A DNA stretch of 64,000 bases from Polyangia bacterium (GCA_050287845.1 JBNKCR010000018.1:15268-79267); one strand, 5' to 3'. Shown: positions 6,378-35,528, numbered from the stretch's first letter. The notes: generated by a model from the letters alone, not told the origin. Numbers and translations: made by a program.

Positions 6378-6467
6378 ATTGCATTCCATCGCACTGCCCC
6401 ACCCGGTTCAGCGAGATCACGCCGTTTTTATTTTGTGATTTTTACAGACAGTAGTATTTGTATATGA

Positions 6468-6881
6468 ATGATAGATTCTCGCTGGACACAGAAGGACGAG
6501 TTAATCGACATACTGCTCGATTTAAAGCATGACCTCGGAAAATACCTGTTTCTCCATTTGTCCCATCTGACCGTTGATTCCCCGCCGGATATGGTGAAAG
6601 AAGCGTTGAAGACTGCCCTTTTCGAGACCCGGAAAGTGGGGGGACGCGTGCAGACCGCGCGGGAAATCTGGGATCGGTATCACAGTGAAATAGACGCTCT
6701 GAATTATGCGTTTTCAAGCTATGAGTTGTTGCGCGCAGCCATTGCAGAGGCATTGGAAATGCGGCGTTTCCTGGACGCCGAGGATAGCGCTCCCGCTCCC
6801 CACGTCGGGCAAATCCAGAAGATTGCCAGACAGGTGTCAGAAACCATTCAGCAGATTATTGGGGAGGAAAGCGATGAGTGA
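6468..6881 (+). CDS. Small helical protein with an H-box-like motif (stand-alone DHp/phosphotransfer candidate)
   Basis: DLKHDLGKYL resembles an HisKA H-box; looks all-helical; stop overlaps the next start (ATGAGTGA). Confidence 0.7.
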   Translation: MIDSRWTQKDELIDILLDLKHDLGKYLFLHLSHLTVDSPPDMVKEALKTALFETRKVGGRVQTAREIWDRYHSEIDALNYAFSSYELLRAAIAEALEMRRFLDAEDSAPAPHVGQIQKIARQVSETIQQIIGEESDE

Positions 6882-8526
6882 TCGGATTCGTATACTGCTC
6901 GTGGACGATGGTGACACGTATGCGGAGCTTATCCACAGACACATGCCGGAATGTGAGCTGATTGTCGATAATCGGAAGGGGGATGCCCGCACCTGTATCG
7001 GAGATGGCCCATCTGCCATTTCATTTCTTGAGACCTACCGGGGCCCCCTTGATGCCGTGTTGCTGGATATGCATTTTGACATTCCCGAGGACCGCCTGTT
7101 TACGCTGGATGAAGGAGCCAGTCTTCGCCGAACCAAACGATTTCAGGGGGTGGCTATTCTGCGGGAGATCCATGAGCGTTTTCCGGCGCTGCCAGTGGTC
7201 CTTCTGACGTCACTCGAAGATTTGTCCCTGGTGGATGCCGCCAAAGATCTGATTTCCCAATCCATGACCTATGTTTTGGACGGCCAGGATTTGGATGCCC
7301 TGCGTGTTCGGATTGCGTCTGCCACCCGGCGATCCAGGGTGGAGGATGACAGTAGCCGGGTGTTGTGGGGAAACAACAGCGCCATGAAATCCATTCAGCG
7401 CCGACTGACGGTATTGGCCAGGGGGAGTATGCCGGTGATCCTGGAAGGGGAGACAGGTACCGGGAAATCATGGCTGGCTGAACAGTTTGTACACTTGAAC
7501 AGTCGGCGAACCGGCCCCTTCGTGGTGCTGGATCTCTCCACCATCCCGGAGAATCTGTTATCGGCGCATCTGTTTGGCGCGGTGAAAGGTGCATATACGG
7601 GAGCGGTGGAAAATCGCAAGGGCGTCTTCGAAATGGCAAATGAAGGGACGCTGTTTATCGATGAAATCCAGAATGCGCCTTTAGAAGTGCAGAAGCAGTT
7701 GCTGCTGGTGCTCCAGGATCGAAAGGTGCGGCCGCTGGGCAGTCCACGGGAGATTCTCGTGGACGTGAAAGTGGTGGCGGCCAGCAACCGACCGCTGGAT
7801 CAGGCAGTGGCCTCCGGTTCGTTTCGCCCGGATTTGTACATGCGCCTGTCTCCGGCCACCCGCGTTCAGATTCCGCCCCTGCGCCATCGACTGGAAGATT
7901 TGCATTATCTGGCTGATCGGTTTACCCGCCGCGCTATGCAGAACAACGACATCGCCGCAATGGTCAAAGAAGTGGCCGATGCTATCGGCAACAGAACCGT
8001 TTCGGATATTCGCCTGGTGGTCGGACGAAATTCGCGTCCCGGAGATGATGACGCTGTTCATCTGGTGGTGCCCAATCCGGTGTGGAAACTGCTCGAGAGT
8101 CACTCGTGGCCCGGAAACATCAGAGAACTTGAAATGCTCATTTACAATCTTATCACGTTCACGCTGGTTGATACTATCGATACACTTCGCCGGGGAATTC
8201 CGATTTCAACCAGCAATCTGCAGGTGGACGCCGGCCTTGTGGGCAATCTCATTCAGAGTGCGCGGGTGCTTCCGCTGCCGGATAGCCGGCAACCGGGACA
8301 AAACACAGACGACAATGCCATTTCGGTGACGCTGAAATCCGCCACCACCCTCAACGACGTGGCCAACGATGTAGAACGCCAGTATTTTCTGTCGCTGTTT
8401 CGCTCCTGTAAACGGGATTTTTCCATGATGGCCCGCGTTCTTCTCGGGGATACGGCTAAAGCACGCGCGGTGCGGCTGCGATTTAACCAGCTGGGGTTGC
8501 GCGTCAGAGAAATCGAGCCGCGATGA
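6874..8526 (+). CDS. Sigma54-dependent enhancer-binding protein (atypical REC + AAA+ + Fis-like HTH)
   Basis: REC ILLVDD..LLDM; Walker A GETGTGKS; GAYTGA; Walker B LFIDEI; FRPDLYMRL; WPGNIRELE; start at MSDRIR after GGAGG. Confidence 0.93.
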   Translation: MSDRIRILLVDDGDTYAELIHRHMPECELIVDNRKGDARTCIGDGPSAISFLETYRGPLDAVLLDMHFDIPEDRLFTLDEGASLRRTKRFQGVAILREIHERFPALPVVLLTSLEDLSLVDAAKDLISQSMTYVLDGQDLDALRVRIASATRRSRVEDDSSRVLWGNNSAMKSIQRRLTVLARGSMPVILEGETGTGKSWLAEQFVHLNSRRTGPFVVLDLSTIPENLLSAHLFGAVKGAYTGAVENRKGVFEMANEGTLFIDEIQNAPLEVQKQLLLVLQDRKVRPLGSPREILVDVKVVAASNRPLDQAVASGSFRPDLYMRLSPATRVQIPPLRHRLEDLHYLADRFTRRAMQNNDIAAMVKEVADAIGNRTVSDIRLVVGRNSRPGDDDAVHLVVPNPVWKLLESHSWPGNIRELEMLIYNLITFTLVDTIDTLRRGIPISTSNLQVDAGLVGNLIQSARVLPLPDSRQPGQNTDDNAISVTLKSATTLNDVANDVERQYFLSLFRSCKRDFSMMARVLLGDTAKARAVRLRFNQLGLRVREIEPR

Positions 8527-11396
8527 CACAGCTTTCGGCATATCTCCTGCTGATGATGCTGGCACAGAGCGCAGCACCTCTCGAAGACAACGACACCGAT
8601 CAGGCTGCCGACGTGCCGGTTCCAATGATGCCGAACATTATGGCCCCGGCGGAGGGGATGGATTCTGAAGTCGCTGAAGATTTGAAGGCCGCGATTGCGA
8701 ATCTGGCCAGAGAAAAGAATGAGCAGGGCAAGAAACTGCTGAAAAGATTCAAGTATCCCGAGGCATTGGCATCGTTTCGGGAAGCCTATGAATTGGATCC
8801 GCAGAACGCCGAAGTGCTGAATAATTTTGGATATGCCCATGCGCTTCTGGGAAATTTTGAAGATGCGCAGAAATACTACGAAGAATCCATTCTGATCGCA
8901 CCGGATCGCTCGGTGGTATACCTGAATTACAGTGATTTACTGGTAGAATTTTTCCCGGAAGATGAAAAGAGTCTGAGCAATGCGGCGGCACTGCTCATTA
9001 AAGCCAGGGAATTGCTCGGCAACAGCCCCCGGGTGATTATTCGCCAGGCCAGGCTGGAAGTTCTTCGCGGTCAGCTGCCCGAGGCGGAGCGATATTATCG
9101 CGAATATCTGGTACAGCGAAAACCGAACGACAAGCTTAAGATTGAGCTGGGCGACTTCTTTCGCGATATGGGAAAAACAGATGAGGCGATACAATGGTAT
9201 GAATCCGTAAAAGATGAACCGACACTGGCCATTGCCGAAGGGCGTCTCTGGGAGATGGAAGTGGCGGCGCAAAGTGTTCGGCTGGGGTGGCAGGGGGACA
9301 AGGTATCGCCGCAGTCGGAACGGTTGGCCGCCAGCGCGCAGAAACTGTTCAACGCCAAAAAATATGTTCAGTCAGAACGGTTGTATCGCCAGGTTCTCAA
9401 GGAATCCCCCATTTATGCCGGGGCCATGGCCGGCTTTGGCGATTTGCTGTACCGGACAGGAAGAGTGCATGATGCGGAGATGTACTGGCTGAGAGCGCTG
9501 GTTATCGACCGGGACAACCCGTCGCTGTACGCAAAACTGGCGCAAATGTATCTGGACCGAAAGAACCGCGACCAGGCGTCATGGGCTGTGGTCTTTTTGT
9601 CCCGCGCACTGGAACTCCGTCCCCAATGGATCGATTTGGAGCTGGATTTGGCGGTGGCGTTGCGGGAAACCGGAGAGCCGCTGGGGGCGCTGTCCCACGT
9701 TAAACGCTATCTGAATCGTGCTGAAGCCGATGATGCCAAACGGCAGGACGCCATGAAATTGAAACGGGCCCTCGAAACCCTGATTCCCGCGGAGGCACTG
9801 ATTGAGAGTGGTCTGGATGAAGCGGTGCAAATCGATGGCGATGAGCTGAGTCCCGCTCTGTCGGAGTCACTGCGCAAGGCAAAAGCTCATCTGAAACGGG
9901 GAAGTCTGAACGGTGCCATGGCGGCGCTGCGAAACCTGGATGAAAAAGATCGCGGGCCGGTGGTGCTGAATCTGGAGGCGCGGATTCTGATGGGGGCAGG
10001 CAAAATCAGGGATGCGCGGGATGTGATGATCGAGTCGCTGCAGAAGGTGGAAAGCCAGCCCATTATTCATGAGCAGTTGGCCCGGGCCTACATCGAACTC
10101 GGCAATCCCCGAAGGGGACGGATTCACCTGCTGCGTGCGGAACAACTGGGATACACGGGTGCCACCTATCTGCTGGCCAAACTGGATGCCGGAGATTTGG
10201 GCGAAGATTTTATATCGATTCTGAAAGATTTGGCCCGACTTCGGCAACTGATGCTGGCGCAAAAGCGGATTCGGTCGTTTTTGCTGAACGATTCGGCCTC
10301 CATTTATCGGGCGGAAGCGCGGGCATTACGGGATAAACTCGCAGATCGTTTTGATGCGTTCAAATCCATGGCGGCATTGACGCTGCTCTCTCTGGCCCTG
10401 GTGCTGTTCATTCTGTTCCTGCGCATCTGGGGAGGTACGGATTTGCGGCGCCTCATTGCAAAGCATCCGGACGCCGGCATTCAGATTCAACGCACGTTGT
10501 CGGCCATTCGACACGAGGTACTCAAGCACAATACCATGATGCTGGTTGGTCTGGTGGATGCCATCGAATCCGGAGAGGATGTGTCGGCACGGGTAGACCA
10601 TTTTCACAAAAAAATGCTGGGCGAAAATGGCACCGGTGGGGTTCAGGCGCGCCTTCAGCACTATATTTCGGAGTTGAAGCAGATTGGAGATGCCCATAAG
10701 AAACGGTTGAACCTGAAGCGGAAAGATGCCGTGACGTCTCCGCTGCTGCGGGGAATGAAACTGATACAGCGAAACCGTTCAAGACTGCTCAGATACGGGC
10801 AACTTTCGAGTGCGTCAAAAACGGCGTTGAAAAAAGATTTGAAAGCCGCCTCTTCATTGCTCAACATTGAAGGATATGAAGCGGTCCGGGATTTGTTGAA
10901 TCAACTCCGAACCCTGGCAGTGAATGAGGCGCTCTTGCGTTCGGTATATGAACAGTGCATCATGGAACCGGCATTTGCGGGTGTGCCATTCGCACCGCTG
11001 CGCATGACACTGGAAATCGCTGAAAACAGCGCAGTCAACGTGGCACTCCCCAGAGCTGCATTTGAAGATATAGTGACCAACCTGATTCGCAACGCCATTC
11101 AATCCTCGCTGATATATGGCGAAGCCTCCTCGAAGGTGGAAATTGCCCTGGCGCTCCAGACCGAAGTGGATATGGTAACGGGTATCGAGCGGGCAGTGCT
11201 CCTGGTGAAGGACAAGTCGCCCCGGGAGTTGACGGCCGAAATGTTGCGCGGGCGGTATATTGAAGAGGGGTTGGGGCTGACAGCGGATCTGGTGACGCGG
11301 TACGATGGGACGCTCGATGTGTTCAGCGGGGATGACCAATGGCAAAAAGCAGTGGCTGTAAAATTACCCGTGGCCACCTATGGCGATGACACGTGA
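8523..11396 (+). CDS. Signal peptide + multi-TPR + transmembrane helix + atypical histidine-kinase-like cytoplasmic domain
   Basis: N-terminal signal; many TPRs (e.g. AYELDPQNAEVLNNFGYAHALLG); TM AALTLLSLALVLFILFL; IRHEVLKHN H-box-like; NLIRNAIQS N-box; EEGLGLT G2-like; ATGA overlap with upstream gene. Confidence 0.8.
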   Translation: MTQLSAYLLLMMLAQSAAPLEDNDTDQAADVPVPMMPNIMAPAEGMDSEVAEDLKAAIANLAREKNEQGKKLLKRFKYPEALASFREAYELDPQNAEVLNNFGYAHALLGNFEDAQKYYEESILIAPDRSVVYLNYSDLLVEFFPEDEKSLSNAAALLIKARELLGNSPRVIIRQARLEVLRGQLPEAERYYREYLVQRKPNDKLKIELGDFFRDMGKTDEAIQWYESVKDEPTLAIAEGRLWEMEVAAQSVRLGWQGDKVSPQSERLAASAQKLFNAKKYVQSERLYRQVLKESPIYAGAMAGFGDLLYRTGRVHDAEMYWLRALVIDRDNPSLYAKLAQMYLDRKNRDQASWAVVFLSRALELRPQWIDLELDLAVALRETGEPLGALSHVKRYLNRAEADDAKRQDAMKLKRALETLIPAEALIESGLDEAVQIDGDELSPALSESLRKAKAHLKRGSLNGAMAALRNLDEKDRGPVVLNLEARILMGAGKIRDARDVMIESLQKVESQPIIHEQLARAYIELGNPRRGRIHLLRAEQLGYTGATYLLAKLDAGDLGEDFISILKDLARLRQLMLAQKRIRSFLLNDSASIYRAEARALRDKLADRFDAFKSMAALTLLSLALVLFILFLRIWGGTDLRRLIAKHPDAGIQIQRTLSAIRHEVLKHNTMMLVGLVDAIESGEDVSARVDHFHKKMLGENGTGGVQARLQHYISELKQIGDAHKKRLNLKRKDAVTSPLLRGMKLIQRNRSRLLRYGQLSSASKTALKKDLKAASSLLNIEGYEAVRDLLNQLRTLAVNEALLRSVYEQCIMEPAFAGVPFAPLRMTLEIAENSAVNVALPRAAFEDIVTNLIRNAIQSSLIYGEASSKVEIALALQTEVDMVTGIERAVLLVKDKSPRELTAEMLRGRYIEEGLGLTADLVTRYDGTLDVFSGDDQWQKAVAVKLPVATYGDDT

Positions 11397-11878
11397 TGGA
11401 GGTGAACACGATGGACACGGTAGTACTGATAATTGAAGATGGGGATGAATACCTCGACAGTCTGAGTCAGTTCGTGCAGGGACCGGAATATCTGCAAGCC
11501 AAAAGTGGCGAACAGGCGGTGGAGATTCTCCAGACGCGAATGGTCGATTTGATTTACCTCGACATGCGGTTTGACCGGATTCCCATGACAGATTTGCTCG
11601 GTGATCATGTGAAGGCCACCCGGGAACATAACGGCGATCCGTTGCGGGCATTTAAATTTTTGCAGAATAATCAGGGACTGTTTATTCTGGAAAAGCTGCG
11701 CAAGGAGAATCTGGTCCATATTCCGGTGATCCTGGCGTATGATTTTTCGAGGCAACAGAAACGGTACGAGCATTTAAAACGGATACATCAGAGCCTTCGC
11801 TGGGTGCCGGATGCCGTCACACCGACCGAAATTCGAAACCTGATGAACGAATGCATTGTCGAACGGGCAGGGCGGTAA
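11393..11878 (+). CDS. Stand-alone atypical response-regulator receiver
   Basis: VLIIEDG, AKSGEQAV, DLIYLDMRFD, IPVIL; overlaps the upstream stop; exact start uncertain (11393, 11396 or 11411). Confidence 0.85.
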   Translation: MMEVNTMDTVVLIIEDGDEYLDSLSQFVQGPEYLQAKSGEQAVEILQTRMVDLIYLDMRFDRIPMTDLLGDHVKATREHNGDPLRAFKFLQNNQGLFILEKLRKENLVHIPVILAYDFSRQQKRYEHLKRIHQSLRWVPDAVTPTEIRNLMNECIVERAGR

Positions 11879-11879
11879 G

Positions 11880-12578
11880 ATGCCGGTACGTGGCGATCGT
11901 CTCGCATGGCCTTATGTCCCCTGTCTGCTGATGTGCATTCTGATTGTTCAGTCTCCATGCATTGCGAAAACCGATACCGAAGGTCCGCCACGGCCCACCA
12001 CCTGCGACACTCTTTCCGGCGCCACCCGGGTCAAACTGCCTCTGGCGCGCATTGTTGCGTTGGATTTGGCCATGTACGCGGGGTTGGTGATTTTGTGGCC
12101 TTACGCGTTTTCGCCAAGTGAAGGCAGTATTGAGCAGTTCAGGGAGAGCTGGACCGAACGGCCATACATGAACTACAGTAAAATCTTTTTTGAGCTGGAT
12201 GACGATCCGTGGGCGATTAACACGGTCCTTCACGGACTGTACGGTTCAGAAGTGTATCTGGCAGGTCGCACCATCGGCCATTCCGGTCTGGTATCTTTTT
12301 TATATGCCATGTTCGCTTCCGTGACCTGGGAGTATCTGGTGGAGGGATGGTTTCATCAGCCGTCGGCCATCGATTTGGCCTGGACCCCCGTGGCCGGTGC
12401 GGTGATTGGCGAGCTGCGCTTTCAGCTACTCCGCATCATCATGATGCACGTGTCTTCCCGGATGCTGCGTAATATCCTCATGACCACCCTTGACCCCATC
12501 GGCCAACTGGAACGCGCCATCATGGGGTGCACCATCCGATGCGGCTACAGCTTGCGGAGATCGTCCAGTTCTTTCTGA
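11880..12578 (+). CDS. DUF3943-like membrane protein
   Basis: DDDPWAINTVLHGLYGS..GR..G..S..WEYLVE..PSAIDL..G.VIGE matches the DUF3943 pattern as recalled; starts 1 nt after the upstream stop. Confidence 0.75.
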   Translation: MPVRGDRLAWPYVPCLLMCILIVQSPCIAKTDTEGPPRPTTCDTLSGATRVKLPLARIVALDLAMYAGLVILWPYAFSPSEGSIEQFRESWTERPYMNYSKIFFELDDDPWAINTVLHGLYGSEVYLAGRTIGHSGLVSFLYAMFASVTWEYLVEGWFHQPSAIDLAWTPVAGAVIGELRFQLLRIIMMHVSSRMLRNILMTTLDPIGQLERAIMGCTIRCGYSLRRSSSSF

Positions 12579-35513: not shown

Positions 35514-35528
35514 TGGCATCGCTTTTGC
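35514..35528 (+). promoter_or_regulatory. Sigma54 -24/-12 promoter upstream of the flagellin unit
   Basis: TGGCAT-CGCTT-TTGC with exact GG/GC spacing, starting 4 nt after the upstream stop. Confidence 0.75.

Follow-up and report, generated by a model that had tools for sequence, protein, structure and literature searches.

Phosphorelays of four steps, and relays that end on a sigma-54 activator, are already known (PMC12471899, in part): the Bacillus KinA-Spo0F-Spo0B-Spo0A relay distributes a kinase, a single-domain receiver, a free histidine protein and a terminal regulator over four polypeptides, and in the Vibrio LuxN/LuxQ-LuxU-LuxO system a small free histidine protein relays to a sigma-54 activator. 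A 64,000-nucleotide stretch of the genome of a Polyangia bacterium (GCA_050287845.1 JBNKCR010000018.1:15268-79267; hereafter the window) carries a cassette with comparable parts, whose four genes encode a 137-residue free histidine donor (the mini protein), a receiver-AAA+ sigma-54 activator, a TPR-containing sensor kinase and a free receiver (Table 1). The cassette is real and widespread and, judging from its sequences, has about an even chance of constituting a His-Asp-His-Asp phosphorelay, derived from a duplicated donor/receiver pair, that leads to a 15-bp palindrome and the sigma-54 promoters of exported proteins. Its parts do not match the HisKA, HPt, Spo0B/ChpT and canonical receiver families, yet likely work like them. 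A preliminary description of this DNA did not recognize a described system, and searches of the open literature indeed found no description of it; subscription papers and supplementary myxobacterial two-component surveys could list these genes.

Several features set the cassette apart from its closest relatives. Unlike that of the Bacillus relay, its output is a sigma-54 activator and its receivers lack the beta-5 lysine; Spo0B consists of a dimeric DHp domain with a dead ATP-like domain, whereas the mini protein is an all-helical bundle probably related to its own kinase. Identity with a Spo0B/ChpT-type phosphotransferase was rejected, as the mini model contains no DHp hairpin followed by a C-terminal alpha/beta domain. 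In the Vibrio system LuxU is an HPt protein and the kinase carries the first receiver within its own chain, whereas the mini protein has no HPt match; the LuxO model matches the activator (E 8e-49) far below its cut-off. NtrB-NtrC and ZraS-ZraR share with the cassette a GHKL ATP-binding domain, a receiver-AAA+ activator and a palindromic upstream site, and NtrB (E 1e-5) and ZraS (E 2e-4) are the best PDB sequence matches of the kinase; however, the cassette has neither a HisKA hairpin nor G1 glycines, carries Lys instead of Thr/Asn four residues after the histidine (H+4) and includes two extra proteins. The monomeric kinase EL346 has an in-chain four-helix DHp-like domain. Its histidine, like that of the cassette kinase, lies in a helical bundle of one chain, but only its ATP domain could be aligned (4r3a_B, Z 13.1, model residues 154-314) and its family motifs are different. 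That EL346 is a monomeric kinase is documented (PMC10359499, in part).

Of 401 genomes of this bacterial phylum that were searched (G000 denotes the genome of the window, other genomes are G-numbered and fetched loci L-numbered), 89 have at least one of mini protein, kinase and free receiver, and 83 of those have all three, a count to be read in the light of profiles (alignments A1-A4) that were built largely from the searched genomes and of related genomes that are not independent. The mini and kinase profiles matched 87 and 86 genomes, respectively; the free-receiver profile matched 115 at E ≤ 0.001, of which 85 were kept at E ≤ 1.4e-9 and the 30 weaker ones dropped as generic receivers. Presence of the activator was checked in the fetched loci only. 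Gene order was scored in 104 loci, 10 unrelated or duplicate ones being omitted; several are pieces of one genome or are cut by contig ends. The order mini-activator-kinase-receiver is found in 52 of them, with many of the others cut by contig ends, and four show the order kinase-receiver-mini-activator, which is that of the proposed phosphate flow. Overall, the mini gene directly precedes the activator in 77/85 loci and the kinase directly precedes the receiver in 63/74, and in the single-contig genome G152 these pairs lie 2.4 Mb apart; broken clusters thus leave the mini-activator and kinase-receiver pairs intact. The mini gene has moved away from the activator in L021 and L024 (G144 and G089), L081, L082 and L091, and activator and kinase are separated by ~2 kb of other DNA in L021 and L024. 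Loci L073-L075, all of one family (f54), contain a free receiver that is similar in type but more divergent, with neither kinase nor mini found, and a plasmid search with the kinase domain gave no match.

Within the window, all junctions of the five open reading frames (overlaps plus one 1-nt gap) are present as first reported, but the proposal that the five genes form one conserved unit is not borne out. Co-occurrence, which had been suggested as a check on all five, extends to mini, kinase and receiver and four genes are conserved, whereas, of 64 receiver loci, only the window, L003 and L004 have a DUF3943 gene next to the free receiver, as does none of 80 metagenome loci, many of them short. 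DUF3943 was discarded as a core part on these counts; since its profile comprises three sequences, distant copies could be missed.

Both sequence and predicted structure suggest that the mini protein likely originated as a copy, now free-standing, of the ~150-residue histidine bundle in the kinase. Its family comprises 660 clusters at 50% identity; in the best 150 nearly all members are stand-alone proteins of 115-185 residues, and 143 have an HDxG(K/R) box. His21 and Asp22 are invariant (57/57). The mini model (predicted local distance difference test score, pLDDT, 94.8) is a bundle of five helices and one short hairpin, without an alpha/beta domain, and the model of the kinase histidine domain has the same helix order and the same small hairpin. 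The mini profile matches the kinase histidine domain at 67% and 85% (E 6.5e-6), with His21 aligned on His664, and still does so at 67% (E 5e-5) after removal of the H-box, vs 0.2% for the HisKA domains of G000, a comparison in which the HisKA and HPt control profiles hold only five sequences each. When aligned end to end with the four-helix bundle 8dt0_B, the mini protein gives Z 11.4 (root-mean-square deviation 3.0, 122 residues aligned) and the kinase bundle Z 11.8 (3.3, 135 aligned). Apart from the shallow controls, two points tell against kinship: the shared match is weak because four-helix bundles reach Z 8-13 by chance, and the two models were compared by way of 8dt0_B only. Since that match is generic and the controls are shallow, homology of the donors is likely rather than proven.

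Known families do not accommodate the mini protein. Pfam searches of the window cassette returned Sigma54_activat, TPR repeats, a weak Response_reg and DUF3943, with no significant match for the mini protein or the kinase tail; no Pfam or NCBIfam family is assigned to the former, and Hpt is absent among the 25 of 31 families shown for its members, all of which are single-member chance matches. A PDB sequence search gave nothing better than E 0.02, an ESM Atlas search nothing usable, and the best fold matches are generic bundles (Z 11.4 or lower) of no specific family, CheA P1 scoring E 0.6 and TM 0.25 in Foldseek; such unspecific matches show neither a new fold nor lack of kinship. A DHp or HPt fold had been made a condition of the first proposal; the small protein is a five-helix domain, probably related to the kinase histidine domain, that Pfam does not assign to HPt and that differs from a plain DHp hairpin. 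In one protein (P0041, 376 residues) a mini domain stands behind what appears by eye to be a glutamine amidotransferase domain, possibly as a read-through artefact.

The TPR repeats, single membrane helix and kinase-like tail of the preliminary description are all present, the tail being of the GHKL type. Typical kinases contain a two-helix hairpin that dimerises (PMC10359499, in part); here, the model (pLDDT 93.7) has a normal GHKL domain behind a ~150-residue helical domain of one chain, and its ATP domain superposes on solved kinase domains with Z 16.1 (root-mean-square deviation 3.0, 139 aligned). H664, H669, N853, R856, N857, D897 and G916 are invariant in 61/61 kinases, as is the acid following the histidine (H+1), and HATPase_c is detected in 42 of these members; in the proposed reading the kinase would autophosphorylate on His664. 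A HisKA-type two-helix DHp domain with Thr/Asn at H+4 was rejected in view of the multi-helix ~150-residue domain, the Lys/Arg at H+4 and the missing G1 glycines, and HisKA is absent among the 25 of 33 families shown for the 61 members. HisKin-conflict (PF22561), the top Atlas look-alike (cosine 0.94), was also set aside: the window kinase has no Pfam match at E ≤ 1, and the family is not among the same 25, the remainder being single weak matches. A link to conflict systems was likewise rejected, since the kinase-independent receivers described in that literature stand in other contexts (PMC8195603, in part). One membrane helix precedes the histidine by at most 70 residues in 60/60 homologues scored, which presumably places the TPR array outside the cytoplasm; as hydropathy scanning reveals no clear N-terminal hydrophobic window, a signal peptide is assigned by eye only. 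The sensor part is variable, one clade having short kinases without Pfam TPR matches. As a guess, the TPR array would bind a protein of the surface or periplasm as its signal, and this protein might be among the targets themselves.

The two receivers are paralogues (99.6%) with a common helical insert after the phospho-Asp, and both retain an invariant acidic pair and phospho-acceptor Asp (D16 and D57 in the free receiver). Together with the likely origin of the mini protein from the kinase bundle, this points to duplication of a donor/receiver pair. Both receivers lack the beta-5 Lys, any Lys being found around that position in only 2/64 (free receiver) and 1/58 sequences, with no KP, and both donors carry Lys/Arg at H+4 (mini 57/57; kinase 61/61, of which 60 Lys and one Arg). 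In HisKA kinases this position is a Thr/Asn that acts in receiver dephosphorylation (PMC3510030, in part). The donor Lys/Arg may complete the receiver site in trans; alternatively, conserved receiver arginines (R59 and R62 of the free receiver, R89 of the activator) would substitute for the lysine. It is possible, though we hold it to be doubtful, that the cassette represents a chemically insulated His-Asp branch, in which a new type of single-chain donor bundle holds at H+4 the lysine that is otherwise found on every ordinary receiver, the lysine-less receivers serve their own donors only, and one duplication produced a full four-step relay from the large TPR sensor to sigma-54 expression of an exported vWA/propeller surface module.

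A number of observations weigh against phosphotransfer through these proteins. The missing receiver lysine has been described as universally conserved, and its absence is taken to indicate a receiver that is not phosphorylated (PMC4125116, in part); the free receiver has Ser in only 36/67 at the Thr/Ser position; the G1 glycines (DxGxG) are absent from the kinase; and G144 and G390 have the kinase, with mini not found. The rarity of the beta-5 Lys and the lack of G1 glycines would suit phosphorylation-independent partner switching, with pseudo-receivers controlled by binding of a histidine bundle and receiver inserts that could act as binding surfaces, but the histidine, phospho-Asp, acidic metal pair and N-box/Asp/G2 residues never vary among sequences that share 20-60% identity, which is unexpected in a dead system. 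We hold this explanation to be very improbable.

In the proposed phosphorelay, a signal from the envelope or from a surface protein, received by the TPR array, would lead the kinase to phosphorylate its own His664, whence phosphate would reach Asp65 of the activator by way of Asp57 (free receiver) and then His21 (mini protein); the activator would bind the 15-bp palindrome and open the sigma-54 promoters of exported VIT-vWA, beta-propeller and small Ig-like proteins. We infer the phosphotransfer steps and their direction, the lysine supplied in trans and the activator's recognition of the motif; the co-inheritance of two His donors with two Asp receivers is observed. The non-canonical His-Asp relay to a sigma-54 activator suggested at the outset thus gains support from co-occurrence, invariant catalytic residues and models, even if its DUF3943 and flagellin parts fail.

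Other wirings of the same proteins are conceivable. CheA P4 phosphorylates P1 in trans. In a branched system, the kinase ATP domain would phosphorylate both its own bundle and, in trans, the mini protein, which would feed the activator, while the free receiver would act as a sink or provide another output; this is consistent with the resemblance of the mini protein to the kinase's own substrate domain, with the separation between the in-chain histidine bundle and the ATP domain, and with the invariant H+1 acid of the mini protein, a residue required for HisKA autophosphorylation (PMC3510030, in part). However, the four flow-order loci place the receiver between kinase and mini. Spo0B and ChpT, moreover, keep the H+1 acid without autophosphorylating, and we consider branching unlikely. 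The adjacency of mini and activator, and the position of mini behind a motif-bearing sigma-54 promoter in some clades, as would befit a feedback inhibitor, could also reflect a two-step pathway from kinase to activator, in which the free receiver would be a buffer and the mini protein would be specialized as a phosphatase, decoy or drain; the H+4 Thr/Asn found in HisKA phosphatases is missing from both donors, so that signal removal needs another route. But the mini protein itself lacks that phosphatase residue, and four invariant phospho-sites in four co-inherited proteins also disfavor the two-step pathway, to which we assign a rather low probability.

At the output end of the phosphorelay, the activator matches Sigma54_activat (E 4e-53), and 59 homologues keep Walker A/B, the R finger and sensor II. 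The motifs singled out in the preliminary description (DLKHDLGKY, GAYTGA, AHLFG and an AAA+ insert) are all found in the sequence; of its claim that every signalling part departs from consensus, the motifs are real but GAYTGA is not unusual, being present in 2 of the 37 activator-like proteins of G000, a genome with one RpoN. The loop reads GAYTGA in 25 of the 59 homologues, GAYTGS in 18 and GAFSGA in 6, and the Glu of ESELFG is replaced by His in 40; GAYTGA is a tolerated variant (PMC6615313, in part). The C-terminal helix is conserved across clades, and putative DNA-binding helices at the C-terminus match seven canonical C-termini of G000 at 51% (E 2e-4) over 33 columns, with no Pfam match to a Fis-type helix-turn-helix.

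Scanning of the fetched loci detected 53 sigma-54-like sites, many of which adjoin the cassette before exported-protein genes; these encode VIT-vWA proteins with a C-terminal PGDP-motif Ig-like domain, Reg_prop beta-propellers and small Ig-like proteins (this last label, like the signal peptides, being assigned by eye), and mini itself also lies behind such sites. Upstream of the cassette-linked promoters is a 15-bp palindrome (consensus TCTACGAWTCGTAGA) whose information, with the G000 site omitted, amounts to 15.2 bits compared with 10.6-11.1 in six dinucleotide shuffles. Using a matrix trained on 22 regions that exclude G000, whose site had contributed to the initial run that suggested the seed, the leave-one-out score is at least 10 bits in 17/22 regions. 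The promoter of the vWA + VIT-vWA-propeller operon on C53 ranks 2/595 in G000 and has two palindrome sites (12.2 and 11.4 bits), which lie about 110 and 90 bp upstream of the -24 element; here (locus L116), VIT-vWA, PGDP-motif domain and beta-propeller are fused in one exported protein of ~1190 residues (G000:C53:22041-25886, minus strand). In G401-G403 and others they are encoded separately. Of five close relatives, three possess a C53-type operon, all with the motif (9.5, 10.0 and 11.1 bits). Among held-out VIT-vWA promoters (28 further PGDP matches in cassette genomes, 23 fetched, two cut before the promoter), a sigma-54-like site with a motif of at least 10 bits occurs in 8/21 from genomes with the cassette vs 1/17 without (17 regions from 16 genomes), the Fisher p of 0.026 being overstated by kinship and some genomes having given other promoters to the training. 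Across the 80 metagenome loci, from which duplicates of the genomes had not been removed, the motif is found at 8/21 sigma-54-like sites vs 61/5538 background windows, and PGDP genes adjoin the cassette in six. One of 30 unused sites is high-scoring: in G385, at a distance of 4 kb from the receiver, an almost perfect copy precedes the gene of an exported M1 peptidase. The best site of the window overlaps the first start codon of the cassette and recurs in the same place in L002-L005 (12.4-14.3 bits), where conservation is confounded by the coding sequence that forms its right half.

The predicted targets share VIT and vWA domains with the marine sortase target TIGR03788 (E 4e-72, below cut-off), from which they differ by the extra C-terminal PGDP-motif Ig-like domain and by being paired or fused with a beta-propeller; a VIT-vWA protein of Limnobacter is stress-induced and protective (preprint 10.64898/2026.05.23.727404, in part). 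Several results speak against this assignment. The palindrome was trained on hand-picked promoters (23/53, plus two more), and G000 has 145 sites of at least 12 bits; in held-out loci, the motif is upstream of mini in only 7/64 and downstream of the receiver in 1/54. A VIT-vWA (PGDP) gene is present in only 31/80 cassette genomes and in 16/160 without the cassette (covering 80 of the 89 genomes with cassette parts and 160 of the 312 others), the flow-order clade (G240, G220, G360 and G380) has no motif at its VIT-vWA promoters, and G119 has motif and promoter, with the cassette not found. The PGDP-gene count, that clade, G119 and the sparse occurrence before mini point to lineage-specific targets, with exported surface or envelope proteins as their common theme. 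Whichever relay reading holds, there is a small chance that the targets have been called wrongly.

G119, the clade without motif and the 37 activator-like proteins of G000 would also be explained if the relay were right and the palindrome belonged to another regulator, with output elsewhere (flagellin, SPFH genes or others). Flagellin is somewhat commoner with the cassette (50/80 vs 165/401 overall), and an SPFH gene with a sigma-54-like site lies ~3 kb upstream of mini in G112 (L117:8838-10195). However, the motif occurs at cassette-flanking promoters in several families and overlaps the cassette's own start, and four G000 queries, a weak test, found no SPFH match in the fetched loci; a different owner of the palindrome appears unlikely. 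The presence of SPFH genes is itself uninformative, as they are found in 61/62 genomes and 13/14 controls. The flagellin promoter at window position 35514, earlier put forward as a candidate target, was rejected: despite a good -24/-12 match it scores -0.4 bits for the cassette-linked motif, and 30/80 cassette genomes (of 83) have no flagellin match.

Genomes with dozens of kinases and activators must avoid cross-talk, for which the known answers are interface residues. If the readings above are true, supply of the lysine by the donor would insulate a pathway by different, catalytic means and offer engineers a ready orthogonal part; lysine-less receivers need not be dead; a relay would have arisen by duplication of one two-component pair; and some 660 clusters would make up an unnamed phosphotransfer family. 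The predicted operator and target operon would, moreover, give bacterial VIT-vWA proteins a regulator.

Table 1. Features of the cassette, its kinase and its predicted targets (w/o, without; aa, amino acids).
Feature	Position	Strand	Remarks
Mini protein, free histidine donor	6468..6881	+	137 aa; His21-Asp22, Lys25
Receiver-AAA+ sigma-54 activator	6874..8526	+	550 aa; D11/D12, D65, T112; w/o beta-5 Lys; GAYTGA aa 239-244
Sensor kinase	8523..11396	+	957 aa
Kinase TPR array	about aa 60-540		Pfam TPR families
Kinase membrane helix	aa 615-633
Kinase in-chain histidine bundle	about aa 648-797		~150 aa; His664
Kinase GHKL ATP-binding domain	about aa 795-953
Free receiver	11393..11878	+	161 aa; E15/D16, D57; w/o beta-5 Lys
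DUF3943 membrane protein	11880..12578	+	local passenger outside conserved unit; Pfam E 6e-26
Cassette-linked palindrome copy over first start codon	6461..6475	.	predicted self-regulation operator; 14.4 bits
Predicted target operon, vWA + VIT-vWA-propeller	G000:C53:22041-26662	-
Sigma-54 -24/-12 matches, flagellar region	window 35514, 38127, 41617	+
Sigma-54 -24/-12 matches, flagellar region	window 36643, 44225	-

Further sigma-54-like sites accompany other exported or membrane proteins. The top-ranked site of G000 (G000:C44:10385, plus strand; motif 12.5 bits) marks a second candidate target, a 410-residue membrane-anchored protein that by eye is LytR/CpsA/Psr-like. Two small exported-protein families without Pfam match (L016:10520-10942, L033:10748-11176, L087:6754-7182 and relatives) lie behind cassette-side sigma-54 promoters; members of one family are similar to the VIT-vWA protein in its C-terminal domain, and it is possible that these small proteins are feedback partners of the sensor. 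As to the cassette's own promoter, a sigma-70 scan found 3 sites vs 4.4 expected, none at the operon start, and a general sigma-54 self-promoter was rejected, its strict pattern occurring in only 2/84 loci. In the window and L002-L004, the start of mini is preceded at a fixed spacing by a TAGTAT-like hexamer (window 6452-6470) and by no clear ribosome-binding site; the transcript possibly begins within the palindrome and has only a very short leader.

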